Shown in pieces: positions 7,656 through 59,784 of a stretch of DNA of 64,000 nucleotides. Source of the stretch: Candidatus Poribacteria bacterium (GTDB lineage Bacteria > Poribacteria > WGA-4E > JAJDTR01); NCBI GenBank assembly GCA_965222225.1, contig CBDCTK010000002.1, positions 4,102,296 through 4,166,295 on the forward strand, written 5' to 3'. A model generated the notes under the pieces. It was not told the origin of the DNA, ran no database searches, and saw nothing but the letters and a program-made list of their open reading frames with translations. Positions within the stretch are counted from its first letter, which is position 1. Every line of letters starts with the position of its first letter. The position numbers were made by a program, and so were the translations under genes.

Positions 7656-9206
7656 ATGCAATTTGACTACATCATCCAAGGCGGGAACGTTGTAGACGGT
7701 ACCGGCAAACGTGACCCGTTCCCAGCGGATGTCGGAGTCGTTCAGAACGAAATTGCCGCTATCGGGAAACTTGATGCCGCACAGGCGAGACGTATAATTT
7801 ATGCACAGGGCAAAGTTGTCAGTCCGGGGTTTATCGACGTTCACATTCATTCCGAGATTGCTCTATTGGGTGGAAGGGACCAAATGGGGAGTGTCCGTCA
7901 GGGGGTAACGACGCAACTTAGCGCACCCGACGGTTTTGGATGGGCACCTCTTCCCCCAAAACAGATAAGAGAGCTATGGCATTACACCCAGTTTGCTTAC
8001 GGGGATGCAGAACTTTCGTTCGATTGGAAGTGTGCCAAGGATTACCTGGGTATTTTTCCGGGGAACATTCCCGCGAACCTCTATCCACAAGTGCCGCATT
8101 GTGCCGTACGCTTGGAAGCGATGGGGTGGGATCCGCGACCTGCGACCGACGCAGATTTAACGCGCATGGAGGAAACTACCCGCGAATGGTTGGAGGCGGG
8201 GGCAGGTTGTCTCTGTCTGGGGCTTGACTATCAGCCTAGCGCGAACGCGGACCTTAGGGAACTTGTGACGCTGTCAAAACTTGCCGCCTCCTATGGCGCG
8301 ATATATGCCGCGCATATCCGTTACCAGCAGATTGGTCGAAAGAGAGCCTGGGAAGAGACTATCGAGTTGGCTAAGCAATCCGGGATTCCCGTTCATATTT
8401 CGCATGAGCGCGTGGATGCAGAGTCTGCGGAGTTGTTGGATCGCGTGGATAGCGAAGACATCGACCTGACCTTTGAATCCTACCTTTATCCGGCGGGAAT
8501 GACGCACCTCTCGATGATGTTGCCGCTGAGATTTCAGGTGGGAAACATGGAAGCACGGATGGAAGTTTTGAAGCAGCCGGAGACGCGACAAGAATCCCTC
8601 CCCCACCTCCAAGAAAGCCTAGGAGAGCGTGGCGATCAGATTATCGGTTATACGGCTTCCGGTCGTTATATCGGCATGACGCTCGCCGAAGCAGCGGAGA
8701 GCGAGAATAAGCCGTGGGTAGAGTTTGCTTACGATCTTACGATTGAAGAAAACGGAGTAGAGACATTAATCTTCCCGTGGCAGACACCACGTGAAGAATT
8801 TCAGTCAACCCTGGATCAGACGGCGGTACATCCTCGAATGATGATTGCGAGTGATGGGGTTTATAACATACCTCACCCTCATCCCCGTGGTTACGGTTGT
8901 TTTGTGCAATATCTCGGGCGCTATGTACGTGAACGGAAGCTAGTCTCGTTGGAGGAAGCCGTATACAAAATGAGCGGATTTCCGGCAGAACGTTTCGGAA
9001 TAAAGGACCGTGGGAGGATTGCCAAGGGGTTGGCGGCGGATGTGGTTGTCTTCGATCCGGAAACCGTTTCAGACCGTTCGACTTGGAAGAACCCGATAGA
9101 ACCACCCGTCGGCGTTGACTGGGTGTTGGTCAACGGCGTGCCGGTTGTGGAGGAGGGCAGTCTGACAGGAGCCTTGCCGGGACGTGTCCTGAGACACGAG
9201 TTTTGA
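7656..9206 (+). CDS. N-acyl-D-amino-acid deacylase (D-aminoacylase) family amidohydrolase
   Basis: FDYIIQGGNVVDGTG...VVSPGFIDVHIHSE start is the D-aminoacylase signature; about 516 aa amidohydrolase. Confidence 0.8.
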   Translation: MQFDYIIQGGNVVDGTGKRDPFPADVGVVQNEIAAIGKLDAAQARRIIYAQGKVVSPGFIDVHIHSEIALLGGRDQMGSVRQGVTTQLSAPDGFGWAPLPPKQIRELWHYTQFAYGDAELSFDWKCAKDYLGIFPGNIPANLYPQVPHCAVRLEAMGWDPRPATDADLTRMEETTREWLEAGAGCLCLGLDYQPSANADLRELVTLSKLAASYGAIYAAHIRYQQIGRKRAWEETIELAKQSGIPVHISHERVDAESAELLDRVDSEDIDLTFESYLYPAGMTHLSMMLPLRFQVGNMEARMEVLKQPETRQESLPHLQESLGERGDQIIGYTASGRYIGMTLAEAAESENKPWVEFAYDLTIEENGVETLIFPWQTPREEFQSTLDQTAVHPRMMIASDGVYNIPHPHPRGYGCFVQYLGRYVRERKLVSLEEAVYKMSGFPAERFGIKDRGRIAKGLAADVVVFDPETVSDRSTWKNPIEPPVGVDWVLVNGVPVVEEGSLTGALPGRVLRHEF

Positions 9207-21415: not shown

Positions 21416-23341
21416 TCATTGACGTCCTCGATATGTCACGAGAAGACTTGCTCGCGGTACGGGTTTGTCGATCGACAACCCTTCGGTCATTTCCGCCCCA
21501 CTGATTTGCCGATTGGTCCGGTTTCGAGATTCATCGCTCAAGGTGAGAAAATAATTTCCATCTGGGTTGAGTCTTCGCGGCAACACCTGAAGCGTGGAGG
21601 CGGAGCACTGTTCCCGTCGGAAGGCTAGGATGATTCCCTCGTCCAGATCCTGCCGATGCAACTGAAACGCGAGCCAGTCCTCGGGAGCAGATGAAGGTTT
21701 CGTTAGCGGGTAGAAATCGCGCAACCAGTAGGGGCGATTGACTCTCAATTCAGCCGTCGCTTCTCGCGCCAATTCAAATGGGAAATCGGCGTCCAACAAC
21801 TGCCACTGTGAAACGCCTCCGATGGTTGCGGAACTGCGGCAGTGATAAGTCTCGTGGCTATGCGTGCAGGCGAGATGCAACACAATGTAGGAACTCAATC
21901 CTATCGTCTGCACTTGGCGCCAGTCTGAATGATCGGAACCGCAACTCGTATCGCTCCGCCACATAGGAATGGCGCGCATACAGGTCTCAAGATCGATTCG
22001 TCTACCGCCGCTCGCGCAATTGTCAATTATTAAGTTCGGGCGCGCACCGAGAAGGTCGTCCCAAAACTGATAGAAACCCGCAACCCACATCATCTCGGTC
22101 ATCCCCTGCCGGTCCGCTGTATCCTTAGAACGCCAATAACCCAGCGGGTCAATGTTGAAATCTTCGCGGTAGATGTCTATTCCAAATTCGTCAATCAACC
22201 CTCCGATTCGTTCTGTCATCCATTGCCGGGCTTCGGGAATCCCAAAATTAAAAACACCGTGAGATTGATCCCACAACCTAAGCACTCATTGCGGGTGCTC
22301 CCCCCAAACCTCGGTTCCCTCATGGACACGCCCCGGCTCAAACCGCACGAGGAATCGCATCCCGTTCTCATGAACGGCATCTGCAATCGGTTTTAGCCCA
22401 TGTGGAAATTCCCGAGGTTTGGCGAACCAATTACCGACGCCGTGCGGAAAATCTCCTTCGAACCAAGCCGCGTCCAGCCAATAGGTATCTATTCCACACT
22501 GCGCAACCTTATCGATGAAATCAAGTTGGCCAGCCTCCGTGGGCCAGGTCGGGTGGCTGTGATAAACATCGAAGTTGTTCTCCGCAATCGGGACATCGGG
22601 CAACTCACCGCCTACCCTCGGGACATAATGCGCAAACATCAGTCGGCGAAATTGATTATGTGCTGCCGCCAATCCATCAGACCAAGGCATTAGAAGAATC
22701 CTAGGCGTTCTGATCTTCTCTCCGGGATGAAGCCGCAAGTGGGTGTGTGCCATCCCGGCTTGCAGATTCAGGCTTCCCGGTTGCGTTCGCGATAGCGAAA
22801 CTTTCCATTGACCCGTCCAGCCGATTGCGACGATTAGTCCCTCACCCCGATGTTCCGTAGTGAAATACGGAAATACGTTGTTAGACGATCGTCCACCCGT
22901 AGGTTGAAACGCGACTTTCTGACCGGCGTCCAATCGTGTTTCAAACGGGAGAAAACTCTGCTCGTTGCACGCATCACCATGAATTTGATGGAGCTTCACC
23001 GGTTCATCGGATTCTGTTGACAGGGCAATATCCAGTGGCAGAATCGTTTCTAGAATGGGCGTATCTTCTTCGCCTACGTTTTCGAAGTAAACAACCAACT
23101 CTACGGCAGTGAAGCCGCGATGTACCTTAACTTGCAACGTCACCACAAGATCGGTATCGGGTTCTTTGAGGGATTTCACAATCTGAAATTGGTCGCCGTC
23201 CGCTGCTTCTTCTTTGGTGCCTTCGGACGTGTGCGGCAACGCCTTGAAACGGGCATCCCCGTACCTGAATGAGAGCGGAATACTAGAGCACATTTCCGTC
23301 ACATCTCCCTCAAGCATGGTTCTGAATTCGCCCATCCACAT
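21416..23341 (-). pseudogene. GH36-like paralog 2 interrupted by an in-frame TGA at 22286..22288 (aligned to a Trp codon in paralog 1)
   Basis: minus strand reads ...GEHPQ*VLRLWDQSH versus paralog 1 ...REHPDWVLRIPDN; both halves (22286..23341 and 21416..22285) are the same frame and keep the GH36 motifs (YWLDAAWF, RFLVRFEPGRV, IYREDFNIDP, IDNCASGGRRIDLE). Confidence 0.7.
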
Positions 23342-39058: not shown

Positions 39059-39345
39059 CTTCAGCCGGAGCCCATTCATGGTAGTCGTATTTGATATTCA
39101 GAGTTCCTACCCATAAAGGTGGCCTATCGCCCACCATGTCTATTAAGGCACGCTTCAGACGGCAAAACACACGGATTTAAACCAGGAATCCGAGACAACA
39201 AAACCGTTTGTTCACTGACGAAAGTATGGAAATGAATCTCCACGAAATGAAATGCAAAGCCCTGCGGGAAGAAATGAAAAGGCGTGGACTGAAGGGATAT
39301 TAATCGTTAAATAAAGCCCAACTCATCCAATATATTTCAACCGGC

Positions 39346-40215
39346 GTGCACCCGATTCGGCACGTTGCCGAATCTAGTGTGCGGTCGAATAAAAAGGTAC
39401 AGACAGTTATTCCAAGAGTTGAGAATCATTCACCTATATCTCCGGCAGCCACGCAGAATGGTTTTCCCATAAACCAAATCTTAGCCGGTGATTGTCTAAA
39501 TGTACTTCCTTCCCTTGCTAGCAATGTTTTTGATTGTTGTATCGCCGATCCCCCGTTCAATATGTCACAAAAAAAAGGATTGGGCTGGGCGTTCAGTTCC
39601 CATATTACGATGCAGGAAGGGTGGGATATCTTCTCAAAAGACGAATATTCCCAGTTCACACTCGATTGGGTCTCCGAGGTTCTGAGAGTCGTCAAGCCGA
39701 ACGGGAATATCTTTGTTTTCGGATCGTTTCACAGTATTTTTACGTTAGGATTTATCCTTCAGAACATATTTGATCGGCGCATTATCACCCAGATTGTATG
39801 GTATAAGCCGAATGCACAGCCCAATATCACCTGTCGCATGTTTACGGAATCAACTGAATTCATTATTTGGGCAGTTAACAATGAGCGTAAAAAGGCAAAA
39901 AACTGGACATTCAATTATCATGAGATGAAGGCGATGAATAATAACAAACAGATGCGAAACATGTGGGAAATCCCGCTGACGAAGCCGTCTGAACGAAAAT
40001 ACGGAAAACATCCTTCACAGAAACCGCTAGCAGTGGTTGAACGGCTAATTTTGGCGGGCACGAACGAAGACGACCTGATTCTAGATCCGTTTTCCGGAAC
40101 CGGAACAACCGGAATTGGTGCACAAAAGAACAATCGAAAATGGGTGATGATTGAGAAAGAAGAATTCTATAATCAGATTGCTCGACGGCGACTTGAAGAG
40201 TTAGCCGGCGAATAA
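39346..40215 (+). CDS. type II DNA methyltransferase, beta-class (N6-adenine or N4-cytosine)
   Basis: motif IV DCCIADPPFNM precedes motif I ILDPFSGTGTTG (beta permutation); markedly AT-rich relative to flanks; stop overlaps the start region of the endonuclease gene. Confidence 0.8.
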   Translation: MHPIRHVAESSVRSNKKVQTVIPRVENHSPISPAATQNGFPINQILAGDCLNVLPSLASNVFDCCIADPPFNMSQKKGLGWAFSSHITMQEGWDIFSKDEYSQFTLDWVSEVLRVVKPNGNIFVFGSFHSIFTLGFILQNIFDRRIITQIVWYKPNAQPNITCRMFTESTEFIIWAVNNERKKAKNWTFNYHEMKAMNNNKQMRNMWEIPLTKPSERKYGKHPSQKPLAVVERLILAGTNEDDLILDPFSGTGTTGIGAQKNNRKWVMIEKEEFYNQIARRRLEELAGE

Positions 40216-40242
40216 TGAGTGTTCATTATAGAGGAGTTTGAC

Positions 40243-40854
40243 ATGCAAAGGCAGGAAGCACTCTCGAAACTGTCAGAGCTTATCAACCAAGACCTGCGTT
40301 TTCTTGCGAATCAATATGAAGTAACGGTTTTCAAGGGAGACAAACCAAATAAGGGTTGGGCATGGCACGTTCTTGAGCGTCATCTTAACTTACCAATCAA
40401 CTCTGCTCAAGCACCAAACTTTGGTTCTTGGGAATTGAAGGTAGTTCCTCCGAAGTATCTAAAAAGTGGAAAGTTGACAATCAAGGAAACAATGGCAATT
40501 ACGATGATTGATGCCTACAATGTTGAACATACCGATTTCCAAGATAGCCATCTGTTCACCAAACTCAGGAAACTAATAGTTGCTGCCAGAATCTGGGAGA
40601 GTCAGCAGGAAGAACGATCTGTGCTTCATATTGTGACAACCTTTGACCTTGACAATCCCAAGATATACAGTCAAATTAAAGCGGATTATGATTTAGTCAG
40701 AGAGACAATCCGCACGAAAGGTTTTTCGGCTTTGACCGGAAAAATGGGGGTATATATTCAACCAAGGACAAAGGGGCCTGGACATGGTAGTATGTCACGA
40801 GCGTTTTACGCAAGAACCACCTTCCTTAAGCAGTTCATTTTTCCGTCGCTTTGA
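40243..40854 (+). CDS. MutH/Sau3AI-family endonuclease, predicted restriction enzyme partner of the methyltransferase
   Basis: NKGWAWHVLERHLNL...NFGSWELKVVP...KETMAITMID...GVYIQPRTKG...RAFYARTTFLKQF parallels E. coli MutH DKGWIGVLLEIWLG...LGVELKTIPV...ETTFVCVAP...EYLQIRPKAA...RGFYLKKNF including the D...E-x-K core; GAGGAG RBS before ATG 40243. Confidence 0.7.
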   Translation: MQRQEALSKLSELINQDLRFLANQYEVTVFKGDKPNKGWAWHVLERHLNLPINSAQAPNFGSWELKVVPPKYLKSGKLTIKETMAITMIDAYNVEHTDFQDSHLFTKLRKLIVAARIWESQQEERSVLHIVTTFDLDNPKIYSQIKADYDLVRETIRTKGFSALTGKMGVYIQPRTKGPGHGSMSRAFYARTTFLKQFIFPSL

Positions 40855-40968
40855 AGACATAAAATCCGCGCAAAAACAGATGCGTTGAATTGACAATTAG
40901 AACATATTCCGTTTTGAATCACGAGGAATCGCCAACCCTACCAACAGACCGGCGACAAACACTGTACG

Positions 40969-42927
40969 ATGGACACAAAACCAACCTTCCAGACCATTAC
41001 CCAGAGTAAAACTTCAACTCCAGTAGATCCTGTAGTAGCGGCGGAGGTTGGTCTAGAGAGGGGCAAAATCGGCAAACTGCATCTGGAGCGGAATGGCGCA
41101 GCCATCCCACCCTTGTCAACACCGATTTTGTACCCCGTAGTTTCATTCATGACCGGTTCGACGCCGCGCGGCGGGGGTTTGTGGAAGTACCTACTTCGAG
41201 ATTTCATGAAGAACGATGTGCCGATGTTGTCGCAAGTCCTGCACTTTCTGGATTTCCCTATCAACGGTAAGAGTTTGGCGAAATGGCGAAGTAAAACCGT
41301 TCGTGAGTGGTATCGTGAGGTCAATGGACCATACGAAGCGCCGCTCCTGCTCGATTCCGGCGGATTCAAACTGCTTTATAACACGGGGCTAGATCTCTCT
41401 GAGTTCGGCATTAACGCAGAAACGGAAGCGGATGATATACTCGCACTCCAGGACGACATGGGTGGGGACATGATTGCTTCTCTGGACTACCCGCTTCCAC
41501 CGGGGCTGGATCGATCGGAAGCCGAAAGGCGGATGAACCGCAGCCTGAAAAATGCCTTTAGGGTAGCGGAATGCATCGCCGATCGCCGTAACCCGCCATA
41601 TCTGTACATCTGTTGTCATGGACAATCCCGGGTTGACATTGAAGAGTACGTCCAGAAGGTTTTTGACAGGCTTCTGGGAGTCTTACCATCGTTTGGACTT
41701 GCGGTTGGCTCTCTCGTACCGCTGCGAGGAAAAAAGGATTCGGAAGTATTGGAGCGGATATTGGGAGTGGTAAACGGAATACCGGAATCGGAGCGACATC
41801 GGACGCCGATTCACGCCTTCGGCGTTTCAGGTGAACTTGCCCCCATACTCGCTTACATGGGAATTGATAGCTTTGACAGCACAAGTTACATTCAAGCTGC
41901 TCGCGGCCTCAACTATTCCCATCCCGAAACGCGGCGGAAGCAGAAAATTATGGAGTTAGACGAAACGGTGTGCACTTGCCGCATCTGCCGCGAGGTGTCG
42001 CTTGATGAAATGCACCTTGCCCTGTCGGATGCAGTAAGTTATAGGAAGACTTCAACCGGGAAGTACAAGAGCGAATACTATGCCGCCATCGCTTTGCACA
42101 ACTTTGAGATGGAAGCGGGGTTACTTTCCCGTATGAAAGAAGCTATTGAGAGCGAAGACTCGCTTGAAGAGTTGGTTCGTCACGCGCAGGTAGGACGAGG
42201 CATCAATAGAGCAGTAGGCTGGCTGCTTGAGAATGATGAGATTTTTGCCAGTAAGATGGCGAAAACTGTCTTTGAGGCCACCGATTCACGGGGCAAATCC
42301 GCCCTTCCAATTGGGCGGAATCCGTATCAACTCGAACTCTTCACGGGATCCTTGACAGCGGAAGGAAATGGCGAGGAATCGCGATCAATCTCGCTCAATT
42401 ATACACCTGATTCCTTTTCCATTCCCGATGATTATGCTCCCCCTAAGGACAAAGACGTACTGCTGGTTATTCCGTGTGCCGGGAAAAAGCCGTATTCACT
42501 GTCGCGCACACACGCTATTGTCAATACCAAACTTCAGACGGCCTTCGGTGAAGCGGGAACTTCCATCCACAGAATTACCCTTTCGGGACTTTACGGACCC
42601 GTGCCGGAGGAATATGAATCTGAAGAAGCTGTCCTCCGATACGATTTTCAGTTGTCACCGAGAAATACCGCGAAAATACAGCTCGGTGCGGATCGGCTCT
42701 GCGCCTATCTGGAGAAGTATGCCAATCACTACAAGCTGATTGTCGGATACGCGACAAGCCAAGCTTATCGCAAAGTGTTTGAACTCACCCGATCCAGACG
42801 GTCAGACTTTGTTTTGCTGCCGACGAAACCGAAACAGAATCGACTCACCGAGTTTTTCCGGCACGTTCACCTTGATGAACTCGTTGAGGTTTTGTCAACT
42901 GTAGCGCAACCACTGAGCAAAGAATAA
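40969..42927 (+). CDS. tRNA-guanine-transglycosylase (TGT) superfamily protein with 250-aa C-terminal extension; candidate DNA/RNA 7-deazaguanine base-exchange enzyme
   Basis: LLLDSGGFKL (TGT DSGGFQ Asp), DMIASLDYPL (substrate Asp), YMGIDSFDST (nucleophile GxDxFD), zinc site VCTCRICREV ... IALHNF (CxCxxC...HN); C-terminal 400-652 carries a PCAGKKPYS motif of unknown function. Confidence 0.75.
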   Translation: MDTKPTFQTITQSKTSTPVDPVVAAEVGLERGKIGKLHLERNGAAIPPLSTPILYPVVSFMTGSTPRGGGLWKYLLRDFMKNDVPMLSQVLHFLDFPINGKSLAKWRSKTVREWYREVNGPYEAPLLLDSGGFKLLYNTGLDLSEFGINAETEADDILALQDDMGGDMIASLDYPLPPGLDRSEAERRMNRSLKNAFRVAECIADRRNPPYLYICCHGQSRVDIEEYVQKVFDRLLGVLPSFGLAVGSLVPLRGKKDSEVLERILGVVNGIPESERHRTPIHAFGVSGELAPILAYMGIDSFDSTSYIQAARGLNYSHPETRRKQKIMELDETVCTCRICREVSLDEMHLALSDAVSYRKTSTGKYKSEYYAAIALHNFEMEAGLLSRMKEAIESEDSLEELVRHAQVGRGINRAVGWLLENDEIFASKMAKTVFEATDSRGKSALPIGRNPYQLELFTGSLTAEGNGEESRSISLNYTPDSFSIPDDYAPPKDKDVLLVIPCAGKKPYSLSRTHAIVNTKLQTAFGEAGTSIHRITLSGLYGPVPEEYESEEAVLRYDFQLSPRNTAKIQLGADRLCAYLEKYANHYKLIVGYATSQAYRKVFELTRSRRSDFVLLPTKPKQNRLTEFFRHVHLDELVEVLSTVAQPLSKE

Positions 42928-42933
42928 GTTGAT

Positions 42934-43428
42934 ATGTACCAATATCGAATGGCGAAAACAGACGATTTGAAGCGAATTGTGGAAATCGAGATGCGATCGG
43001 AGATCCAATCCAATCCATCTTGTCGAGAGAAGCATCAGATTGGCTTCGATACTCGCTACCGTTGGTGGACCGATTATTTTAATCGCACCAGCCACACCGA
43101 AACGATCAGTGTTCATCGGACGATATACGTTGCTATGATTAAGCTGAATATTGTCGGATACATCGCCGGACATCTGACCTCTCAACCCGATCCGCAAGGC
43201 GAGATTCAGTCGATGAACGTCCTGAAACCGCAGTGGGGAAAAGGAGCGGGAGTAAACCTGCTTAGGAATCTGGCAAGGTGGTTCAAGAAGCAAGGCGTCG
43301 CGTCCGTCTGTGTGCATGTGCCAGAGCATAGCCCATATAAGGAATTCTATGCCCAACACGGTGCTACGGCTGTGAATGACTCCCTTTGTCGGTGGGATAA
43401 CATCGGCGAGGTGACAGAAGAATCGTAA
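42934..43428 (+). CDS. GNAT-family N-acetyltransferase
   Basis: QSMNVLKPQWGKGAGVNLLRNL is the acetyl-CoA-binding motif A (Q/R-x-x-G-x-G/A); 164 aa. Confidence 0.7.
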   Translation: MYQYRMAKTDDLKRIVEIEMRSEIQSNPSCREKHQIGFDTRYRWWTDYFNRTSHTETISVHRTIYVAMIKLNIVGYIAGHLTSQPDPQGEIQSMNVLKPQWGKGAGVNLLRNLARWFKKQGVASVCVHVPEHSPYKEFYAQHGATAVNDSLCRWDNIGEVTEES

Positions 43429-43444
43429 CACCCATAACGAGATA

Positions 43445-44503
43445 ATGAGTAGCCCTTGGTTAATCTCTCAAAAAGCCGATCTAAGCTTTTTTTTCTTGCC
43501 CCTAATCGTTATTTGGGTGGTAATATTCCTGTTGCCGTCTTCCGTCCTTGACCACGATTTGCCCTTGTGGGCATGGGCAGTATTCATCCTGGGATTTGAT
43601 GTAAGCCATGTTTGGAGCACGTTGTTCCGAACCTACATCGACAAGGATGAAACCGAGAGGTTGGGACGAAAGGCGTGGTCGATCCCGCTCCTCTCTTTTC
43701 TTGCCGTTTTCGTCGTATGCTCATTGTCGATTGACGTGTTTTGGCGATTATTGGCATATCTCGCTGTTTCTCATTTCGCGAAACAGCAGTTCGGTTTTCT
43801 CGCTCTTTACCGAATCAGACAGGGAAGAATTAGCAAACGTATTCCGGACAAACTAGCAATTTACCTAGCGGTTCTTTATCCTGTCGTCTACTGGCATTTG
43901 GCTCAAGACAGGTCATTTGAATGGTTTGTGTCGGGCGATTTCGTGTTTCTTAAGCACTTCCAACTACCGCATCAAAAACTAATCATTACCAATGTATTGT
44001 ACTGGACGATCTTGGCAGGTTGGTTAATAGAGGAATGCATTACTTCTGTCAAACAGGTCGGCAAGATAGCTTATGGCAAAATCGCTTGGGTATTGGTCAC
44101 CGCGTTCAACTGGTATTTCGGGATTGTACACTTCAACTCCGACATTGTTTTCTCCGTTACCAACGTAGTTGCGCACGGTCTACCGTATATGACATTGGTT
44201 GTTTGGTATAACATAAGGAAAAACGCGAGTTTGAATCAATCTGTGCCGATATTCCAAATGATTTTCACCGTTGTATTTGGAGCTATATTGTTGGCATATA
44301 TTGAGGAGTTTGGCTGGGATATGCTGCTATTTAGAGAGAGAGGCGAGTTATTTCCGGCTTATTTCATCGGTCTCTTTGAAGGTTCACTGGCGATTGCTTT
44401 TGCGTATGCGCTACTGGCTTTGCCACAAATCACTCATTACATTCTTGATGGAATCATCTGGAAAAACAGCGCATCAAATCCTCACGTGAAACAGATGCTG
44501 TAG
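43445..44503 (+). CDS. polytopic membrane protein of unknown function (352 aa, about 10 TM)
   Basis: hydrophobic ORF tightly following the GNAT gene (16-bp gap). Confidence 0.55.
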   Translation: MSSPWLISQKADLSFFFLPLIVIWVVIFLLPSSVLDHDLPLWAWAVFILGFDVSHVWSTLFRTYIDKDETERLGRKAWSIPLLSFLAVFVVCSLSIDVFWRLLAYLAVSHFAKQQFGFLALYRIRQGRISKRIPDKLAIYLAVLYPVVYWHLAQDRSFEWFVSGDFVFLKHFQLPHQKLIITNVLYWTILAGWLIEECITSVKQVGKIAYGKIAWVLVTAFNWYFGIVHFNSDIVFSVTNVVAHGLPYMTLVVWYNIRKNASLNQSVPIFQMIFTVVFGAILLAYIEEFGWDMLLFRERGELFPAYFIGLFEGSLAIAFAYALLALPQITHYILDGIIWKNSASNPHVKQML

Positions 44504-44531
44504 GCCGGTGCGAAGGAGAAAGAAGCACATT

Positions 44532-45254
44532 ATGGAGTTGTACCCGATTCGCCACGGTCAGTCGACCAACAACCGTGGAGATGCGCGTGTCTCTGATCCA
44601 TCGCTGACGGAGCTCGGGAGGCAGCAAGCGACCAGAGCAGGACTGGCGCTGAGAAACCTGGGTATCACGCGCCTTTAATGTAGTGCGATGCTTCGTGCGG
44701 TGCAAACCGCCACAATTGTTGGAGAACACTTGGGACATGCCCCGCATGTTTTCGTGGGAATTCACGAGTGGGGCGGCGTTTGGGAAGATCGGGTTGATGG
44801 TGGTATGGATCAACTGCCGGGACTAACACGATCGCAGTTGCGCGATGCCTGTCCGACAGCCGTGTTGCCAGATGATGTAACGGACGAAGGTTGGTGCATT
44901 CAAGCATTCGACGCCCACGAACTAGCGTACGGAGGGAACGATGAACAAATGCTGGGCTTGGCACACGAAAATTGCCTTCGATTCATCGCCCACTTGGACC
45001 ACCACCACCACGCAAGAGAACATGAAAAGGTCGGGGCAATTTTGCACGGTGGATCCGGATCAATGCTGCTCGGTGCATTTTTTGGTTTGCTACCAAATGA
45101 AACTCAAAATCGCTTCCCGCACAACAACGCCGGAATCACGAAAATTATTAGAACTCCGAAGTATACCCAGTTGCTTTATCAAAACCAGACCAGCCATCTA
45201 TTGAAAGAGAGTGAATTCGACCTAGAAGCCAGTTCTCCCATGGTAATTTGGTGA
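44532..45254 (+). pseudogene. histidine phosphatase (phosphoglycerate mutase family) tandem copy 1, in-frame TAA at 44676..44678
   Basis: MELYPIRHGQSTNNRGD (RHG catalytic motif) ... ITRL*CSAMLRAVQ where copy 2 has VTRLYFSAMLRAVQ (TAT to TAA). Confidence 0.7.
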
Positions 45255-45408
45255 AACGAGTACTGAATGACCAACACCGCCTAGACGGAATTATTTGAAA
45301 AAACAGTGCATCGAATCCCCACCTGAAACAGATGCTAAAATCCGATACCGTGATAAAGCAGTGCATGATTGCCGGAACCGTTTTCAAGCTGAAAGGAAAT
45401 AACAGATT

Positions 45409-46131
45409 ATGGAATTGTACCTAATTCGCCACGGTCAGTCGACCAACAACCGTGGAGATGCGCGTGTTCCTGAGACACCGCTGACAGAGATCGGAAAGCA
45501 GCAAGCGGACAGATCGGGACGGGCGTTGAAGAACTTGGGTGTCACGCGCCTTTATTTCAGCGCGATGCTCCGTGCGGTGCAAACCGCCACAATTGTTGGA
45601 GAACACTTGGGACATGCCCCGCATGTATTCGTGGGAATTCACGAGTGGGGCGGCCTTTGGGAAGATCGGGTTGATGGTGGTATGGATCAGCTACCGGGAC
45701 TAACACGATCGCAGTTGCGCGATCTCTGTCCAAAAGTGGTGTTACCAAATGATGTGACAGACAACGGTTGGTGGTTTCCATCGTCTGTCAATGATAAACC
45801 GGTATCGGCATGGGACTATGCGCAGATGCTCCAATTGATTCACAGAAACTGCCGTGGGTTCATCGCGCATTTGGAGCAACACCACGGTGGGGAAGCTGAG
45901 AAGATCGGAGCAATTATACACGGAGGCTCCGGCTCAATCCTAATCGGAGCCCTGCTAGGGATGCCACTGCCAAACGAATTTCCAGAGCGCTTCCCACACA
46001 ATAACACCGGCATCACGAAAATTCGAAGAACCCACGAGCACACACAGTTACTGTATCATAACCAAACCGGTCATCTACTGAAGAATTGTGAGTTCAGTCA
46101 AGAAGCTAGCTCCCCATTACTAACATGGTGA
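45409..46131 (+). CDS. histidine phosphatase (phosphoglycerate mutase family), tandem copy 2, intact
   Basis: MELYLIRHGQSTNN...; 240 aa; about 85% identical to copy 1. Confidence 0.75.
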   Translation: MELYLIRHGQSTNNRGDARVPETPLTEIGKQQADRSGRALKNLGVTRLYFSAMLRAVQTATIVGEHLGHAPHVFVGIHEWGGLWEDRVDGGMDQLPGLTRSQLRDLCPKVVLPNDVTDNGWWFPSSVNDKPVSAWDYAQMLQLIHRNCRGFIAHLEQHHGGEAEKIGAIIHGGSGSILIGALLGMPLPNEFPERFPHNNTGITKIRRTHEHTQLLYHNQTGHLLKNCEFSQEASSPLLTW

Positions 46132-46264
46132 GACATTCGATTGACTCAATATTTAGGCGGTATCGCATTATTCAATCGGCTCTTGGCCGTACAATTAGGG
46201 TCGGAATATGCACCCGTACAAATCACTACTCCGTTCTTATCCGTGAGGGAAGGATACAGACGAA

Positions 46265-47770: not shown

Positions 47771-48244
47771 ATGACCATGAAGAGACGAAAGACAGTATAC
47801 CTTGCGAATCCCTACGGTTTCTCGGAGCAACAGCGGGAATACCTATTACCAGCCCTGATTCAGGCACTGGAAGCTATTGGCTTAGAGGTATGGGAGCCGT
47901 TTGAGCGAAACAACAATGAAGACATTTCGTTACCCGGCTGGGCATACCGAATTGGACAACGAGACAAGAATGATGTCGTTGAAGCGGACGCGATTTTTGC
48001 CGTCGTGAACGGTGTCCCGCCCGACGAAGGGGTTATGGTCGAATTAGGAATCGCGATTGCGCTCGGAAAGCCCACATTCCTATTCCGCGACGACTTTCGG
48101 GGTGCCGCCGATTCCGATGAATACCCACTCAACCTCATGGTCTTCACTGGCTTACCCCGCTGTGGATGGGAGCGGTACTACTTCAAATCGATAACTGAGA
48201 TTTCATCGCCCGACAAAGCATTGGCGCCTTGGGCAAAAATATAG
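47771..48244 (+). CDS. nucleoside 2-deoxyribosyltransferase-family protein
   Basis: TVYLANPYGF ... DAIFAVVNG ... MVELGIAIALGKPTFLF matches the NDT fold signature (YLAGPFF ... E.G.A.A.GKP). Confidence 0.7.
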   Translation: MTMKRRKTVYLANPYGFSEQQREYLLPALIQALEAIGLEVWEPFERNNNEDISLPGWAYRIGQRDKNDVVEADAIFAVVNGVPPDEGVMVELGIAIALGKPTFLFRDDFRGAADSDEYPLNLMVFTGLPRCGWERYYFKSITEISSPDKALAPWAKI

Positions 48245-53907: not shown

Positions 53908-54993
53908 TTGAGAATTGAAAACGTCGACTTTCCCAAACCGTTGATAGAAGCCTTGCATGACAACGAACTCGTAGTGTTCGCTGGGGCTGGCGTTTCAATC
54001 GGTAAACCTGCCCGTCTGCCCAGTTTCAGATCGTTGACCAATATTATCGCCGAAGGTACCGGGAAAACGGCGCGCGATGGCGAGACGCCTGAGCAATTCC
54101 TCGGAAGATTAAAAGACCAAGGCGTAAAAGTGCATGTGCGCGCTGCGCGACCGCTTTCTCAAGAAGGTTTGCAGGCTACGGCCCTTCATCAAGATCTTCT
54201 TAGACTCTATCCTAAAACAGCGCCCGTTCGCCTCGTCACCACTAATTTCGATCCCCTGTTTGAGCAGGCAGCCTTTGAGCAGGCAGCCGAGGAAATATTC
54301 GACAGTTCGCCAGAAGTATTCCGGGCACCCGCGCTGCCTTTGGGACGTGAGTTCGACGGCATTGTTCATGTTCACGGTTCAGTCCGTCGCCCTAACGAGA
54401 TGTTACTTACGGATAGAGATTTTGCTCGCGCTTATCTGACCGATGGCTGGGCTCGACGCTTTCTCGTCGAACTTTTCAGTAATTTCCGAATCCTCTTTGT
54501 TGGCTACAGTCATGACGACACGATTATGAATTATCTGGCCCGCGCGCTTCCTGCCGGTTCGGAATACCAACGTTTCATTTTGACCGGTTCCGAAGACAAG
54601 AAACCCTCTGATGATTGGCGTTCACTAGGGATTGAACCGATAGTCTACCCTCAGGCTAACGAAAATGACTATAGTGAACTCGACACAAGCATTCATGGCC
54701 TCGCCGAACTTGTACAGCGACGCGTTGTTGTTTGGAATGATGAAATAACCAATATAGCGCAAGTTCCGCCTCCCACTGACGAGAATAAGGCAGATCTCAT
54801 TGAGTACGCGCTAAGCGATGAAGTAAACACAAGGTTCTTTGCAAAAGCGGCTTCAGATCCTGATTGGATTGACTGGCTCGACGAGCGTGGACATTTGACC
54901 GCGCTATTCCGCGACGATATACTCACCGCGCAAGCCAAAACCTTGTCTTGGTGGTTGGCAGATCGATTTCTTTTCGGAATTAGTAGCTTGTAG
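53908..54993 (+). CDS. SIR2-like (DHS-like NAD-binding, SIR2_2 type) domain protein; candidate NADase defence effector, probably the 5' part of an IS-disrupted longer gene
   Basis: LVVFAGAGVSIGKPARLPSF (GAGxS), VTTNFDPLFE (TTNYD) and VHVHGSV (catalytic His) are the three SIR2_2 hallmarks; ORF ends abruptly 20 bp before an IS1595 element. Confidence 0.75.
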   Translation: MRIENVDFPKPLIEALHDNELVVFAGAGVSIGKPARLPSFRSLTNIIAEGTGKTARDGETPEQFLGRLKDQGVKVHVRAARPLSQEGLQATALHQDLLRLYPKTAPVRLVTTNFDPLFEQAAFEQAAEEIFDSSPEVFRAPALPLGREFDGIVHVHGSVRRPNEMLLTDRDFARAYLTDGWARRFLVELFSNFRILFVGYSHDDTIMNYLARALPAGSEYQRFILTGSEDKKPSDDWRSLGIEPIVYPQANENDYSELDTSIHGLAELVQRRVVVWNDEITNIAQVPPPTDENKADLIEYALSDEVNTRFFAKAASDPDWIDWLDERGHLTALFRDDILTAQAKTLSWWLADRFLFGISSL

Positions 54994-54999
54994 CTTTTA

Positions 55000-56215
55000 G
55001 ACTGACGACAAACATAAAACTTGGTACCCTGTCGTAAATCTTTTCGTCACACGTAGATGTCCATAGTGACTATTCTTCTCGTAGGAGTTTGCTATGGACA
55101 TTTTGAATCTTATGAAAGAGTTTCCAAATCAAGAATCTTGTCTCAGATTTATAGAGGAAAAACGTTGGAAGGACGGTGTTTGCTGTATCCACTGTGGCAG
55201 TGAAAAAGTTGGACGCAAGAACAAAAACGACATTACTACTGGTTGGAATTGCTACGATTGTGAATCTAGCTTTTCGGCTACAGCAGGAACCATCTTCCAT
55301 GGTACCAAGATACCTCTCCAGAAATGGTTTTTGGCTATCTCAATTCTTTCCAATGCCAAGAAAAGCATATCGAGTTGTCAGCTTGCTCGTGACTTGGACA
55401 TGAATCAAAAGTCCGCTTGGTATATGGCAATGCGCCTCCGTGAGAAAATGAGTGATAGTGATGAATTGCTGAAAGGGATAGTTGAAGCGGACGAAACCTA
55501 TGTCGGCGGCAAACCCAGAGCAAAATCTAAGAGAGGTAGAGGCACAAATAAATCTCCCGTCATCGGCGTAGTCGAGAGAGGCGGTCGGGTGGTTGCTAAA
55601 TTCATGAAGGTTCTATCTGGTGAAAATATCAGAGAATTCATCCTTAGCAATGTCTCACCCGATGAGTCTATTCTTATGACTGATGAATTTCGCTCTTACA
55701 ATAGTCTGGACGAAGATATCGAAAGACATGTTATCCATCACCAAGAGAGATATGTTTCTGAGGACGGCGTAACTCACACCAACACCATCGAGTCGTTTTG
55801 GGCTTGTGTCAAGAGGTCATTCTACGGAACGCATCATCACTACAGCAAGAAGTGGCTGCCACTGTATATCATGGAGTCTTGCTGGAAATATAATCGCAGA
55901 AAAGATGATGAGATTTTCATAAGATTTTTTGATGAATGCTTCACCTGAGCCACATGAATTGTTTGGCTATCGGTATATTCTGTCAACGACAACATCATGG
56001 TGTGCTGAAAATCCCATAGTGTTGGAAATTAAAATCCCGCAGATAACCCGCAATGCTCCCGCGAGCATGTACAAACGCTTGGTCAACATGATATGCCTCC
56101 ATTTCTCTCTTATAGAGATGTATTTTAGTGTGAATCAAGATTCCGAACACTGTCTAAAATGATTGTACATTAAGAAGAGAAAAGCAAGCAAATCGACCAA
56201 AAAGCAGTTAACTAC
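55000..56215 (+). mobile_element. IS1595-family insertion sequence (boundaries approximate)
   Basis: single transposase gene with N-terminal CxxC zinc ribbon and E-x-DETYVGG motif; I could not define the terminal inverted repeats by eye. Confidence 0.55.
55094..55948 (+). CDS. IS1595-family transposase
   Basis: CIHCGSEKVGRK...CYDCESSF zinc ribbon; EADETYVGGKPRAKSKRGRG; DDE-type C-terminal region. Confidence 0.8.
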   Translation: MDILNLMKEFPNQESCLRFIEEKRWKDGVCCIHCGSEKVGRKNKNDITTGWNCYDCESSFSATAGTIFHGTKIPLQKWFLAISILSNAKKSISSCQLARDLDMNQKSAWYMAMRLREKMSDSDELLKGIVEADETYVGGKPRAKSKRGRGTNKSPVIGVVERGGRVVAKFMKVLSGENIREFILSNVSPDESILMTDEFRSYNSLDEDIERHVIHHQERYVSEDGVTHTNTIESFWACVKRSFYGTHHHYSKKWLPLYIMESCWKYNRRKDDEIFIRFFDECFT

Positions 56216-56274
56216 TAAGTCCCTTTCTTTTCAACCATGCAAACAGACTTTTCCTGCTCATTGGTAAGCATAAT

Positions 56275-58626
56275 ATGCGCTTGCATCCGCAGCTCTGGCG
56301 CGATATGGGTTGGAAACTTGCGAGGAATGGTGAAGTTTTTTCTGATAAAGACACGCTTCGCCGCTGGTTTTCACTGTTGCTTACCTCTCTTCGAGAGAAA
56401 ATAAGCATGAACGATCTGATGCATGTCGACACGGACTATCTCCTGCCTCAGATGGGTGAACTTTGCATAGCAAACGAAATGCTGGATGATTTATTGCAGA
56501 TATTCGATTGGATGATGGAAAGTCGCATTCGGATTAACAAAGGATACTCGTGGCCTTCTGCCGACGATGACAGGGAAATACCCTCTGTTGATGCTGAATT
56601 AATTCCAATTAGCGAACAACACGAATTGAATGAACTGTGGGAAGTGGGACTGAAGCCTAAGCTACCTCAAGTAGCCAAGCCGTTACTCGATCGGGTAATC
56701 AGGCGGCTAGAAGGACAATATCTCACACTGTGTACTTGGGGAAAGGTGCACGGCACATGGGATCCAATGAGCGAGGGACGTTCTGCCATTGAGCCTGAAG
56801 AAGGGGATGGTAATACCGAATCGATTGATGTGATGATCAATGCGGCCCGCGATTGCCTCTTATGGCTGGCTTCCAATCAGGTAGAAACAGCGACACAATG
56901 GTGTAATCGGCATGTGCGTTCGGGAGTAACTCTGCTACGCAGACTTGCGGTACATGGGGTGTACAAACGCGAAGATTTAACAGCAGACGACAAAATTGAT
57001 TGGTTACAAACACACATAAATCAGATTGGGTTGTCGGTTGGCGCCGAAGTGTTCCCGTTACTACAGCAAGCCTATCCCGAAGCCTGCCCGGCACATCGAA
57101 GCTCGCTTATTGAAGCCATGTGGACTTACCGTTGGCCTAAGGAAACAGCTTCGGACGGAGATAAGCATGCGGCAAGGCAACAATTCGACTGGTTTAATTG
57201 CATCCATCGATGTGTTCCTGACTGCCTCTTGGCTAAAGCAGCGTTGGATAAAGTGTTGGCGCGGTACCCAGAATTCAAGTCGATGGTACCTCAACCTCCG
57301 ACACAAGGAGGCATATCAGGTCCAATCGCGCCGCAAAGTGCTCCGCCCCCTGAAGAACTACCGCCAACACCTTCCGCCGATCAACTACACGAGTTACTGT
57401 CAAATCAAACTGCAGCGTGGGATGAAGCTAAACATAGTCAAGTATTCCAGAGGCTTGTCAGAATTGAGTTGTATCCAAAATATAGTCACGCGATTGCCAA
57501 TGCGCTCTATGCACTGGTAGAGAACGGTGGTCCCTCCTATGCCTTAAAACTACTCCCGCAAGCCCAGCGAATCGCTTCGGCACTGTGGCCCCATCTTGAC
57601 CGGACCGCGCCAATCGATGCAAGAGGAGACTGGCTATTCGCCGCCATGAATCACCCGGCAGGGCTCCTGGCTTACTTCTGGATATCTGCACTCTCACTCT
57701 GGCGCGAGCACCACGATCCTAAACCTACAATTCTCAACGATGACTATCGTAGGGCGCTGTCCGACATTGTGGTGGACCGGTCGCCGGCAGGTACGCTCGG
57801 GCGGACGGTTCTCGCCAGCAAATTGCATATTCTCTTGGACGCTGACCAGGTATGGACACGTGAATATCTTCTTCCGCTTTTTGACCCGTGCAGCGATGAC
57901 TTCCAAAGTGCGTGGGACGGTTTCGTAAAATGGGGAAAGCTCAATCCTTCGGTCGCTAAAGCCATGACTGATCTATTCCTCAAGGCAGTTACGCGGATCG
58001 GCACCGACCTCTTCAACCAACGTGATTCATTCGTAAAACACTACATCGCTATGCTCATAGATTCCATTTATATCGCCGAAGACCCTCTCAGCGAATGGAT
58101 TCCTAAGATATTCAATCACGGCAGCCAAGATAGTCCTTCTGCCGATAGCGAACCTACGCTTTTTCCCCGCGCCAATCGATCTATTGCGGAGATCTTTGCA
58201 TCAGTTATGAGTAGCCGCTTACGGAATATGCCTGAAACCGAGCAGCGGGAGTTGTGGGAGCACTGGCTCAAGGATTACTGGCAGAATCGCCTGGAAGGTG
58301 TGCCCTCCCCACTTATGTCTAGCGAAGCTAAACTCATGCTCGATTGGCTGACGGCTTTGACTGCGGTATTTCCCGATGCCGTCGCGCTTGCTGTCCAGAT
58401 GCCATCGACTTCGTTGGAGCGTACGAGGATTCTATCTTCTCTGGTGAAAAATAGTACATGGTTGAGCCATCCCGATGCGGTCGCGAAGTTATTGATTTAT
58501 CTGTGGCAATGCGGTATACCGGCACACTATTGGCACTTAGTGCAGAAGATCGTTGCCCCCCTCGTCGAGTCGAAAATCCCGGCAGAACTTCAGCAGAAAC
58601 TGGAGGACATCAGAATCCAACTCTAG
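56275..58626 (+). CDS. large all-alpha-helical protein (783 aa), possibly the displaced C-terminal sensor part of the SIR2 gene
   Basis: reading frame is open upstream of the annotated Met back to 56217 with no RBS; highly helical, Leu/Ala/Trp-rich repeats. Confidence 0.5.
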   Translation: MRLHPQLWRDMGWKLARNGEVFSDKDTLRRWFSLLLTSLREKISMNDLMHVDTDYLLPQMGELCIANEMLDDLLQIFDWMMESRIRINKGYSWPSADDDREIPSVDAELIPISEQHELNELWEVGLKPKLPQVAKPLLDRVIRRLEGQYLTLCTWGKVHGTWDPMSEGRSAIEPEEGDGNTESIDVMINAARDCLLWLASNQVETATQWCNRHVRSGVTLLRRLAVHGVYKREDLTADDKIDWLQTHINQIGLSVGAEVFPLLQQAYPEACPAHRSSLIEAMWTYRWPKETASDGDKHAARQQFDWFNCIHRCVPDCLLAKAALDKVLARYPEFKSMVPQPPTQGGISGPIAPQSAPPPEELPPTPSADQLHELLSNQTAAWDEAKHSQVFQRLVRIELYPKYSHAIANALYALVENGGPSYALKLLPQAQRIASALWPHLDRTAPIDARGDWLFAAMNHPAGLLAYFWISALSLWREHHDPKPTILNDDYRRALSDIVVDRSPAGTLGRTVLASKLHILLDADQVWTREYLLPLFDPCSDDFQSAWDGFVKWGKLNPSVAKAMTDLFLKAVTRIGTDLFNQRDSFVKHYIAMLIDSIYIAEDPLSEWIPKIFNHGSQDSPSADSEPTLFPRANRSIAEIFASVMSSRLRNMPETEQRELWEHWLKDYWQNRLEGVPSPLMSSEAKLMLDWLTALTAVFPDAVALAVQMPSTSLERTRILSSLVKNSTWLSHPDAVAKLLIYLWQCGIPAHYWHLVQKIVAPLVESKIPAELQQKLEDIRIQL

Positions 58627-58680
58627 CAATCAATGTGACCAGTTTCAATCTGATGAATCAGATTGATGACTATTATTGTA

Positions 58681-58810
58681 GGGTGGAATCTGCGATCAAG
58701 CGACTGAATAAGGAGCGATCAAAGGAATGGATTATGACTGCGATAGGAATCTCTATAGAAAATCCCACGCGATAGAGCTCCCATAGCAAATCGCGTACGA
58801 TAGAAAGTCC
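58681..58810 (+). repeat. modular dispersed repeat, multi-word copy
   Basis: GGGTGGAATCTGCGATCAAGCGACTGAATAAGGAGCGATCAAAGGAATGG...GCGATAGAGCTCCCATAGCAAATCGCGTACGATAGAAAGTCC. Confidence 0.6.
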
Positions 58811-58872
58811 TTTGGCGCCAGTAGGGCGTGATTCGATACTGTTCAAATTCGTCGTATTCCGCTCTCGCCTTC

Positions 58873-59784
58873 TTACTTCCCAGCCTTATACCGCGCCACT
58901 GGACTCCGTTCCGACGGTGCCTCCCTCACATACCGCGCCGGCATCGTCGGCTCCTGCCACCGCCCCGCTCGTTGCACCTCCTTCACGCTTGCCCCGGCCT
59001 CTGCAAGCGACACCGCAGACCCGATACGAAGCGAGTGTCCGCTAATCAATCCCGTCACTCCCGCTTCCGCCGCCCGCCGCTGTATCGCCGCGCGCCCCCC
59101 CTTCACCCCCAGCCGATCGTCAGTCACATGATTCTGGAAGCGTATCCTCCGGAACAAAGCCCCCGACGCAATCCCCGCTCTCGTTCGATACCGCTCTATC
59201 AACCGCCGTGTCGATTCACAGATATACAGATTCTCGCCCTGGTCCTCCCCGCTTGTCCTCTTGCCGTAGACCTGAAGCCCCTCGGCTCTAACATCCTCCA
59301 CATCCACTGCAACCGCCTCCGAGATGCGTAACAGGCAATCGCTCATCAGCCTAATCATGGCGGCATCACGGGTGCCCGCCGCGGTATCTGACGATTCCGC
59401 CGCCGCACACACCCGCTCCACTTCGTGCCACGTAAGCCCGTCTACCTGGCGCCGCCCGCGCCCTTTACCTTCGCCGCGGATATCAGACAATGCGCGAGCG
59501 GTGATGTCCCCAACCACATTGCCAACCCCACGGTACTCCGCCATCCACTTCACCGCGGACACGACCAGCTTGATCGTCGCCGGCGATTTCCCCTGTGCAT
59601 ACAGAAACCTGATATATTCCGCCAGCACCGCATCCGATAGGGCACGTCCGTCTAGCCAAGCTTCCAGCTTGCGGCTCGCGTGCTCATACGCCTTGAGCGT
59701 GTTATCCGCCACGTTTGCCCGAATCTCCTGCCCCGTACCCGCGGCGATTCGCAACCCCCTATCCGATTCCTTGCCTTGCTTCAT
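58873..59784 (-). CDS. tyrosine recombinase / phage-type integrase
   Basis: C-terminal catalytic box GHSLRIGSAVSLAEAGA...AGRWQEPTMPARY (H-x-x-R ... Y) and N-terminal SAM-like core-binding region. Confidence 0.85.
   Translation of the reverse strand: MKQGKESDRGLRIAAGTGQEIRANVADNTLKAYEHASRKLEAWLDGRALSDAVLAEYIRFLYAQGKSPATIKLVVSAVKWMAEYRGVGNVVGDITARALSDIRGEGKGRGRRQVDGLTWHEVERVCAAAESSDTAAGTRDAAMIRLMSDCLLRISEAVAVDVEDVRAEGLQVYGKRTSGEDQGENLYICESTRRLIERYRTRAGIASGALFRRIRFQNHVTDDRLGVKGGRAAIQRRAAEAGVTGLISGHSLRIGSAVSLAEAGASVKEVQRAGRWQEPTMPARYVREAPSERSPVARYKAGK

Follow-up and report, generated by a model that had tools for sequence, protein, structure and literature searches.

In the Dpd system, encoded by dpdA-K in Salmonella Montevideo and other bacteria, DpdA and DpdB insert 7-cyano-7-deazaguanine (preQ0), DpdC converts it into 7-amido-7-deazaguanine (ADG), and DpdD-K restrict. 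To our knowledge, the 7-deazaguanines of cellular DNA are so far only dPreQ0 and dADG, the products of this DpdA/B/C system, and deoxyarchaeosine (dG+) has been reported only for the DNA of phages and viruses. The DpdA2 and ArcS2 proteins of Vibrio phage nt-1 and Sulfolobus virus STSV2 yield dG+ in DNA; for nt-1, DpdA2 together with ArcS2, which consists of the DUF5591 core alone, leads to dG+ in the DNA of E. coli (PMC10516641). The archaeal tRNA enzymes ArcTGT (TgtA) and ArcS are the third point of comparison. Here, we analyze a 64,000-nt stretch of contig CBDCTK010000002.1 from Candidatus Poribacteria bacterium (the window, within which all positions are numbered) and, in it, a 652-aa protein in which a tRNA-guanine transglycosylase (TGT) domain is fused to the ArcS C1 core (TGT-DUF5591). 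By analogy with the phage proteins, we consider it somewhat probable (about 0.55) that this enzyme exchanges guanine in DNA for preQ0, from which it then makes an archaeosine-type base.

The window protein resembles each of these systems in part. With the Dpd system it shares the TGT fold and the catalytic Asp pair, and it differs in its extra ArcS-C1 domain and in a score of 17.2 bits against the DpdA equivalog cut-off of 200 (NF041059); the PADLOC DpdA model PDLC02807 gives 16 bits (E 8.7e-4). With DpdA2 and ArcS2 it shares the same two predicted activities, a DUF5591 core without PUA and an intact C1 motif, the difference being that both activities are fused in one chromosomal protein of a cellular organism. 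Its best sequence matches are archaeal TgtA (TIGR00432, 76.9 bits) and ArcS (NF040592, 77.4 bits), yet both lie far below the equivalog cut-offs of 350 and 440, and the window protein has neither C2 nor PUA and comes from a bacterial host. Bacterial Tgt (TIGR00430) scores 31 bits against 306.75, and only the superfamily thresholds are passed (PF01702, 59.6 bits against 26.3; TIGR00449, 66.1 bits against 47.6). A preliminary description, made from the sequence of the locus, had presented the protein as a 652-aa TGT-like enzyme and had read it in the light of the DpdA lineage, a reading that canonical tRNA Tgt or TgtA membership would have contradicted. These scores bear out the TGT domain and its place outside the tRNA groups, and they do not support membership of DpdA in the strict sense; the protein is also not only a TGT, since the C1 core had been overlooked.

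Both domains carry their catalytic signatures. We aligned the window protein with 16 distant full-length relatives (17 sequences, 30-59% identity). Invariant residues of the TGT domain are D129 of the DSGG motif, the base-binding D173, D300 and D303 of GxDxFD, and the CxCxxC...H zinc site. From the established TGT literature, we take D129 to be the general acid/base corresponding to Asp102 of Z. mobilis TGT, and D303 to be the nucleophile, Asp280 of the same enzyme and Asp249 of ArcTGT. The DSFDS motif aligns with GVDLFDS of P. horikoshii ArcTGT, and GSLVPL of the window protein aligns with GGVVPL of ArcTGT; a preQ0-type base pocket is suggested for the TGT domain. In the C-terminal domain, KPY, YGPxP, E550, R576 and R601 are invariant, with K507, P508 and Y509 themselves invariant or nearly so. 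These three residues belong to PC-x3-KPY-x2-S-x2-H, which has been defined as the ArcS C1 motif and its role described (PMC5699537, PMC10516641), and which the window protein matches exactly. As judged from these residues, both catalytic modules are intact and under constraint. No profile match to a PUA domain was obtained in the 652-aa protein, in which only ~40 residues follow DUF5591, and C2 is likewise absent. The closest solved sequence is that of ArcTGT (1iq8, E 4e-11), with AF0587 the closest for the C1 core. Fold comparison confirms both domains, with scores of 32.1 for bacterial TGT, 29.3 for QTRT2, 27.8 for ArcTGT, 25.5 for DpdA (7ui4), 19.2 for Cap10 and 14.6 for AF0587 (DUF5591), and it does not separate DNA-acting from tRNA-acting TGTs.

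In the mechanism that we propose, the TGT domain would exchange a guanine of DNA for preQ0 provided by the queuosine pathway of the cell, as DpdA does. The nitrile of the incorporated base would next be changed by the C1 core into an amidine (dG+ or an amine adduct), in the way of phage ArcS2 working with DpdA2. In Poribacteria, the resulting DNA mark would be an orphan, analogous to that of an orphan methyltransferase. It had been suggested that the exchanged base is further acylated; nothing supports this, and the built-in ArcS-like domain is the likelier source of any follow-on chemistry.

The proposal of a DNA substrate draws on the wider TGT-DUF5591 family. This family is small: in a set of 1.84 billion proteins, 554 representatives reach E <= 1e-3 and 104 reach E <= 1e-30, and a metagenome scan provided 80 loci with 32-67% identity. 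A viral origin was considered and rejected, no relative being found in 2.9 million IMG/VR viral contigs or in 50,697 INPHARED phage records. Marker genes were counted in the 73 non-Poribacteria loci having at least two neighbours: 57 of them carry at least one marker and 48 a Dpd homologue, a gene for preQ0 synthesis or transport (QueC/D/E or YhhQ) is present in 24, and a second short TGT in 37. Clustering of the neighbours showed that 45 loci have a GHKL ATPase and 36 have a DUF6884 protein, that QueD, QueC and QueE occur in 17-19 loci each, and that YhhQ/Vut_1 and the second short TGT paralogue (~415 aa) are recurrent too. The DUF6884 domain has been assigned to DpdC (PMC12235509). Further recurrent partners are a DpdJ-like helicase (E 1e-49), a DpdK-like phospholipase D (PLD) nuclease (E 2e-14), a DpdH-like protein (E 6e-21) and a DpdG-like protein, and single loci carry GmrSD_N plus HEPN, or a phosphodiesterase plus AAA ATPases. 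The distant members thus adjoin homologues of DpdC, DpdG, DpdH, DpdJ and DpdK together with QueC/D/E and YhhQ, in likeness to the Dpd system; such an association with DNA-processing genes sets the family apart from archaeal ArcTGT and ArcS. The tie to 7-deazaguanine synthesis and to Dpd restriction-type genes that had been anticipated for the locus is strong for the wider family, with a marker in 57 of 73 loci.

One of these neighbourhoods recurs in haloarchaea (the metagenome loci L035-L092, and L103 on the Haladaptatus sp. YSMS36 plasmid NZ_CP119784.1, 47138-65655), where it is found on plasmids of the cultured strains Haladaptatus sp. YSMS36 and Natrinema sp. SYSU A 869. It combines a DUF6884 protein, the ~415-aa TGT, a GHKL ATPase, the long TGT-DUF5591 (sometimes in two copies), QueC/D/E and DpdG/H/J/K-like proteins. 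In contrast to the Dpd system, these halophile islands have the GHKL ATPase in the place of DpdB as well as the second, short TGT. They often lie beside Dnd (phosphorothioation) restriction genes, and their RefSeq annotation is generic. In the literature consulted we found no description of the TGT-DUF5591 fusion or of this island type, though an earlier one may exist.

The members that carry Dpd-like islands are 32-46% identical to the window protein. All members at 50% identity or more, namely those of Poribacteria and of L015, L017-L020 and L102, are without any marker. In a neighbour-joining tree of the family, rooted on the short TGT paralogues, this marker-free "solo" group is monophyletic, comprises 15 leaves and includes all Poribacteria. 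Its successive sisters are carriers of DpdJ, QueD and YhhQ, then carriers of DpdG, DpdH, QueC and YhhQ, and then the large halophile group. Because the solo clade nests among marker-bearing lineages, the most fitting view of the Poribacteria gene is that it descends from a component of a Dpd island and has been orphaned. Taken further, a single fused DpdA-like/ArcS2-like enzyme could write dG+ or a related amidine adduct into the chromosomal DNA of Poribacteria and their relatives, as an orphan mark without a cognate restriction partner, while its family provides the self-mark of a new haloarchaeal type of Dpd-like island, with two TGT paralogues, a GHKL ATPase and DpdC/G/H/J/K homologues. We put this fuller scheme forward tentatively, at somewhat below even odds.

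Several observations weigh against a DNA-modifying role for the window protein. The DNA target is deduced from members that are no more than 32-46% identical to it, and no Dpd or preQ0 gene lies within 8 kb of the members of at least 50% identity, whose surroundings are housekeeping and metabolic genes, a setting just as suitable for an enzyme of tRNA. Within the window, no preQ0 pathway gene was found by tblastn and no riboswitch by Rfam in 38.5-48.5 kb. Bacterial Tgt also lacks a PUA domain, so that its absence here is not decisive. Lastly, the adjacency of methyltransferase, endonuclease and TGT genes has been inherited vertically in two clades of Poribacteria, which leaves room for some functional coupling among them. 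As a further difference from the Dpd system, no DpdB/ParB-like partner, dpdC or Dpd restriction gene is present among the window neighbours, and tblastn found no GHKL ATPase or DpdC/H/J/K homologue elsewhere in the window.

These observations bear on a different assignment, in which TGT-DUF5591 would modify tRNA or another RNA, as a fused bacterial analogue of ArcTGT and ArcS that introduces preQ0 and makes of it an archaeosine-like base, and its restriction-modification (R-M) neighbour would be coincidental. The archaeal enzymes are indeed its best matches, at some 77 bits each against 17 for DpdA, and ArcTGT 1iq8 is its closest solved sequence. The solo-clade gene is single-copy, vertically inherited and about as conserved as the housekeeping genes that surround it, among other metabolic genes, and the JGI annotation reads 7-cyano-7-deazaguanine tRNA-ribosyltransferase. 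However, every tRNA-enzyme equivalog cut-off is missed by a wide margin, the C2 and PUA domains with which ArcTGT and ArcS bind tRNA are absent, and the deeper branches of the family, within which the solo clade is nested, lie in Dpd-type DNA islands. We also know of no report of archaeosine from bacterial tRNA. A tRNA substrate is therefore a serious but unlikely explanation, and modification of DNA remains the reading that we prefer.

The preliminary description had interpreted the enzyme through its neighbours, as part of a seven-gene operon, and the layout that it reported is correct: seven co-directional plus-strand open reading frames occupy 39346-46131, and their domain assignments hold in a Pfam search (N6_N4_Mtase 170 bits, MutH 44.9, TGT 59.6, GNAT 39.8, and His_Phos_1). 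The 114-bp gap 5' of the TGT gene is real as well, although it is not the single large one, a second gap of 154 bp between the phosphatase copies having been missed. We lean, with slightly better than even confidence, towards seeing this region as a juxtaposition of three unrelated things, namely an R-M pair, a 7-deazaguanine enzyme and a set of lineage-specific passengers.

To compare the gene context of the TGT homologues, we searched 94 loci by tblastn with every partner protein. Among GTDB representative genomes, the TGT-like protein is found in five species, all of them Candidatus Poribacteria. Two clades can be distinguished: clade A, composed of the window and L001-L004 (TGT protein 82-92% identical to that of the window), and clade B, composed of L005-L009 (68-74%). 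The neighbourhoods of L001-L004 are largely syntenic with the window, and L001, L002 and L004 share its flanks too (enolase-like, GFO, ArgJ); L003 shares only the methyltransferase, TGT and GNAT genes. L001-L004 therefore say little on function. In clade B, the flanks differ and the GNAT, membrane protein and phosphatase genes are absent beside the TGT gene, with the methyltransferase-endonuclease-TGT order retained in L006 and L007. L005 has the flanks of L007, but a 123-aa open reading frame occupies the place of the R-M pair, and the TGT gene is kept. In L002 and L009, the methyltransferase is kept and the endonuclease lost; here too the TGT gene persists. In L003, a DUF6996/DUF6997 gene (7118-7897, minus strand) replaces the endonuclease beside the retained methyltransferase, and its product may be an alternative nuclease partner. 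In L007/L008 (11173-17776), on one Poribacteria-type contig of 9.7 Mb, a dense defence island lies 3' of the TGT locus; it consists of a series of SEFIR/TIR-domain genes, an AAA_15/AAA_21 ATPase with DUF4276 and a Schlafen/AlbA_2 gene.

The adjacency of methyltransferase, endonuclease and TGT genes thus recurs in two clades of Poribacteria with three different sets of flanks. Since the identity matrices of the methyltransferase and the TGT protein resolve the same two clades, the two genes appear to have been co-inherited vertically in Poribacteria. This pattern speaks for a reading in which the three genes form one composite defence unit and the 7-deazaguanine mark cooperates with the R-M pair, for instance by shielding GATC sites or by serving as a second self-mark. 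The trio is co-directional, the spacer between endonuclease and TGT genes is conserved at ~111-114 bp in Poribacteria that keep the endonuclease, no terminator-like site lies between the genes, and the two proteins occur on one contig for at least 14 of their 90%-identity clusters, several of these contigs being shorter than 10 kb. No sigma-70-like site was found within the 114-bp spacer, the aligned spacers hold no structured element, and Rfam gave no match at E <= 1, preQ1 or other riboswitches included, in the 38.5-48.5 kb that cover it. Nevertheless, the R-M pair stands alone elsewhere, TGT-DUF5591 persists where the pair (L005) or the endonuclease (L002, L003, L009) has been lost, and the pair is absent at the 61%-identical relative L102 and at the 50-52%-identical relatives L017-L020; none of the six partner genes gave a tblastn match near a TGT homologue in 81 further loci. 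The claim that the base-exchange enzyme is wired to the R-M pair is not supported by these observations, and we regard a three-gene unit as improbable.

The R-M pair, by itself, meets the description of a type II system: an adjacent methyltransferase and endonuclease with recognised domains, recurring as a unit in unrelated genomes. The beta class that had been attributed to the methyltransferase is borne out by its motif order, DPPF at aa 68 preceding FSGTG at aa 249. Its orthologues are 328-336 aa long and start ~40 codons 5' of the start first chosen. The corresponding N-terminal extension, from ATG 39226, is broken by an in-frame TAA at 39301-39303; this extension is non-catalytic, and the catalytic core of 289 aa restarts at GTG 39346, open and intact. 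The endonuclease open reading frame is intact, and its true start is probably ATG 40243, since the homologues (3770 found, many of them also matching PF15515) are 203 aa in length. Stand-alone pairs occur in L010, L012, L013, L095 and L096, which include Ignavibacteriaceae and Symploca. There, endonucleases 69-72% identical to that of the window are accompanied by a beta-class methyltransferase, a Dam-type D12 methyltransferase or both, in variable gene order and often adjoining toxin-antitoxin genes; those partnered by D12 enzymes in Symploca and Ignavibacteriaceae are 69-70% identical. Cassettes of the DpnII/MboI type, which are directed at GATC and carry both a D12 and a beta-class methyltransferase, likewise place methyltransferase and small endonuclease side by side; in the window pair, whose activity is a prediction, a nonsense codon has removed the N-terminal extension of the methyltransferase, which distinguishes the pair from them.

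The specificity of the pair is probably GATC, given the D12 partners, the assignment to the MutH/Sau3AI family and the depletion of GATC, with an observed/expected ratio (O/E) of 0.62 in the window. Among 4-mer palindromes only GGCC is depleted more strongly than GATC, with an O/E of 0.35 in the window and of 0.24 in related loci, where the ratio for GATC is 0.59. Both depletions suggest a long-term restriction pressure of HaeIII type plus GATC type in the Poribacteria lineage. Where the window endonuclease and its Ignavibacteriaceae homologue are aligned by eye to the catalytic Asp70 of MutH, they read PNFGSWELK, with ELK kept, against QDF...ELK in MutH, so that the endonuclease would have Asn for Asp. 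A role of the MutH-like gene as a mismatch-repair nickase was considered and is unlikely, because the gene travels with methyltransferases of different classes and in different orders, beside toxin-antitoxin genes, in other phyla. Taken together, the pair appears to be an autonomous, ordinary R-M system, long resident in Poribacteria and decaying in several lineages. Run on the window, PADLOC recognises this pair and gives the marginal DpdA match mentioned above, and nothing further.

The genes 3' of the TGT gene are of a different kind. The GNAT gene starts 6 bp past it and is restricted to clade A, being present in L001-L004 and absent from L005-L009, L102 and the 81 other loci; a functional link between GNAT and TGT is possible but unsupported. 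For the membrane protein, ten transmembrane segments had been claimed and ~9 hydrophobic segments are computed, in fair agreement. Homologues 42-50% identical to it come from marine Bacteroidota and Planctomycetota, where their gene contexts are unrelated. We examined it as a preQ0 transporter and rejected this candidate, as it has no YhhQ/Vut_1 similarity and its homologues lie in unrelated contexts. In a Cyclobacteriaceae locus (L099, 3829-6086), the homologue overlaps the stop of a spermine-synthase-like gene, itself 3' of an AdoMet decarboxylase gene, which hints that the family may be polyamine-related. Two tandem histidine phosphatases had been reported; the duplication is real and copy 2 is intact, but in copy 1 a TAA at 44676-44678 breaks the frame at a codon that specifies Tyr in copy 2 and in the orthologues, and only 188 aa remain open, from 44688. 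Copy 1 is thus a probable pseudogene. Copy 2 is the orthologue of the single phosphatase of L001 and L002, the gene being doubled in L004 too, and within the 154-bp gap between the copies the 3' end of the membrane gene survives as a duplicated remnant.

It had been proposed that the seven genes form a modification-dependent defence or self-protection module, in which GNAT would acylate the base with the assistance of the membrane protein and the phosphatases. The genes do share a strand and short spacers, and GNAT follows the TGT gene after 6-9 bp throughout the five clade A genomes, L003 with its different downstream genes included. Yet the full order is seen only in genomes close enough for their flanks to be syntenic, and GNAT, membrane protein and phosphatase are not beside the TGT gene in clade B, in L102 or in any of the 81 other loci, where no partner is found. 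The unrelated contexts of the membrane protein homologues, the pseudogene among the phosphatases and the confinement of PADLOC recognition to the R-M pair and a marginal DpdA match also speak against such a module, which we consider very improbable. By comparison of these gene contexts, GNAT, the membrane protein and the phosphatases are best described as lineage-specific passengers with no demonstrable link to the R-M pair or to the TGT enzyme. The coordinates of all features are collected in Table 1.

Table 1. Positions of the features of the locus, numbered within the window
Feature	Position	Strand	Basis
Beta-class N6_N4 DNA methyltransferase	39226..40215; 289-aa core from GTG 39346	+	PF01555 170 bits; PADLOC MTase_II 3.8e-75
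MutH/Sau3AI/MvaI-BcnI-type type II endonuclease	40219..40854	+	PF02976 44.9 bits; NF040973 Sau3AI 7e-15; PADLOC REase_II
114-bp spacer, endonuclease to TGT-DUF5591 gene	40855..40968	+	ORF (open reading frame) coordinates
652-aa TGT-DUF5591 fusion	40969..42927	+	PF01702 aa 123-405, PF17884 aa 487-610
TGT domain	aa 123-405, nt 41335-42183	+	PF01702
DSGGF motif, D129	41353..41367	+	Invariant in the 17-sequence alignment
DSFDS motif, D303	41866..41880	+	D300 and D303 invariant in the 17-sequence alignment
Zinc site C335-x-C337-x-x-C340 then H377	41971..42108	+	All four invariant in the 17-sequence alignment
DUF5591/ArcS-C1 core	aa 487-610, nt 42427-42798	+	PF17884
ArcS C1 signature PC-x3-KPY-x2-S-x2-H, here PCAGKKPYSLSRTH	aa 502-515, nt 42472..42513	+	Exact regex match
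GNAT acetyltransferase	42934..43428	+	PF00583 6e-10
Multi-pass membrane protein, unannotated family	43445..44503	+	No Pfam, NCBIfam or PADLOC match
Tandem duplication of membrane-gene tail and phosphatase, period ~877 bp	44444..46134	+	Repeat families D1-D3
Histidine phosphatase copy 1	44532..45254	+	PF00300, C-terminal part only
Histidine phosphatase copy 2, intact, 240 aa	45409..46131	+	PF00300 7e-26

A nucleoside 2-deoxyribosyltransferase gene (47771-48244; PF05014, 1.4e-26) lies directly 5' of argJ, and it occupies the same place in L001, L002 and L004; it has no evident link to the TGT gene. Its position 5 kb downstream could be read in favour of an enzyme acting outside nucleic acids, on a protein, as for the TGT-like Cap10 of type IV cyclic-oligonucleotide-based antiphage signalling systems (CBASS), or on a free nucleoside or base. 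However, no CD-NTase or QueC-like Cap9 gene is nearby, and in relatives the deoxyribosyltransferase gene is linked to argJ and not to the TGT gene, so that we hold a target of this kind to be highly improbable.

Two further features of the window concern its general state. Five in-frame nonsense codons are present in the 64 kb relative to Poribacteria orthologues, at 22288 (TGA, minus strand), 32120 (TAG), 39301 (TAA), 44676 (TAA) and 47249 (TAA); the genes that they split are a ~640-aa gene (21416-23341), a PD40/TolB-like paralogue, the methyltransferase N-terminus, phosphatase copy 1 and a small remnant. Stop-codon reassignment was considered and rejected, since TAA, TAG and TGA all occur among the interrupting codons and since TAA is the most frequent of the genuine stops (16 of 39). 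The in-frame stops reflect either ongoing pseudogenisation or assembly error. Further downstream, a SIR2_2-domain gene (53908-54993) and a gene for a DUF4020 protein (56275-58626) are parted by an insertion sequence (IS) transposase of the IS1595 family (55094-55948), and a tyrosine integrase gene follows (58873-59784, minus strand). The stretch 53908-59784 has a low GC content of 0.42-0.45 and resembles a mobile islet whose SIR2/DUF4020 defence-type gene has been disrupted by the IS.

Based on the above data, we favour for TGT-DUF5591 a role in DNA, as an enzyme conserved across a sponge-symbiont phylum and nested in a family that populates Dpd-like islands. If true, its product would be the first dG+ in cellular rather than viral DNA. 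The fusion of insertase and archaeosine-synthase core would then bring dG+ chemistry into the genomes of cells, the TGT superfamily would gain a new branch, and the Poribacteria gene would provide Dpd systems with an "orphan" counterpart of the kind that orphan methyltransferases represent.

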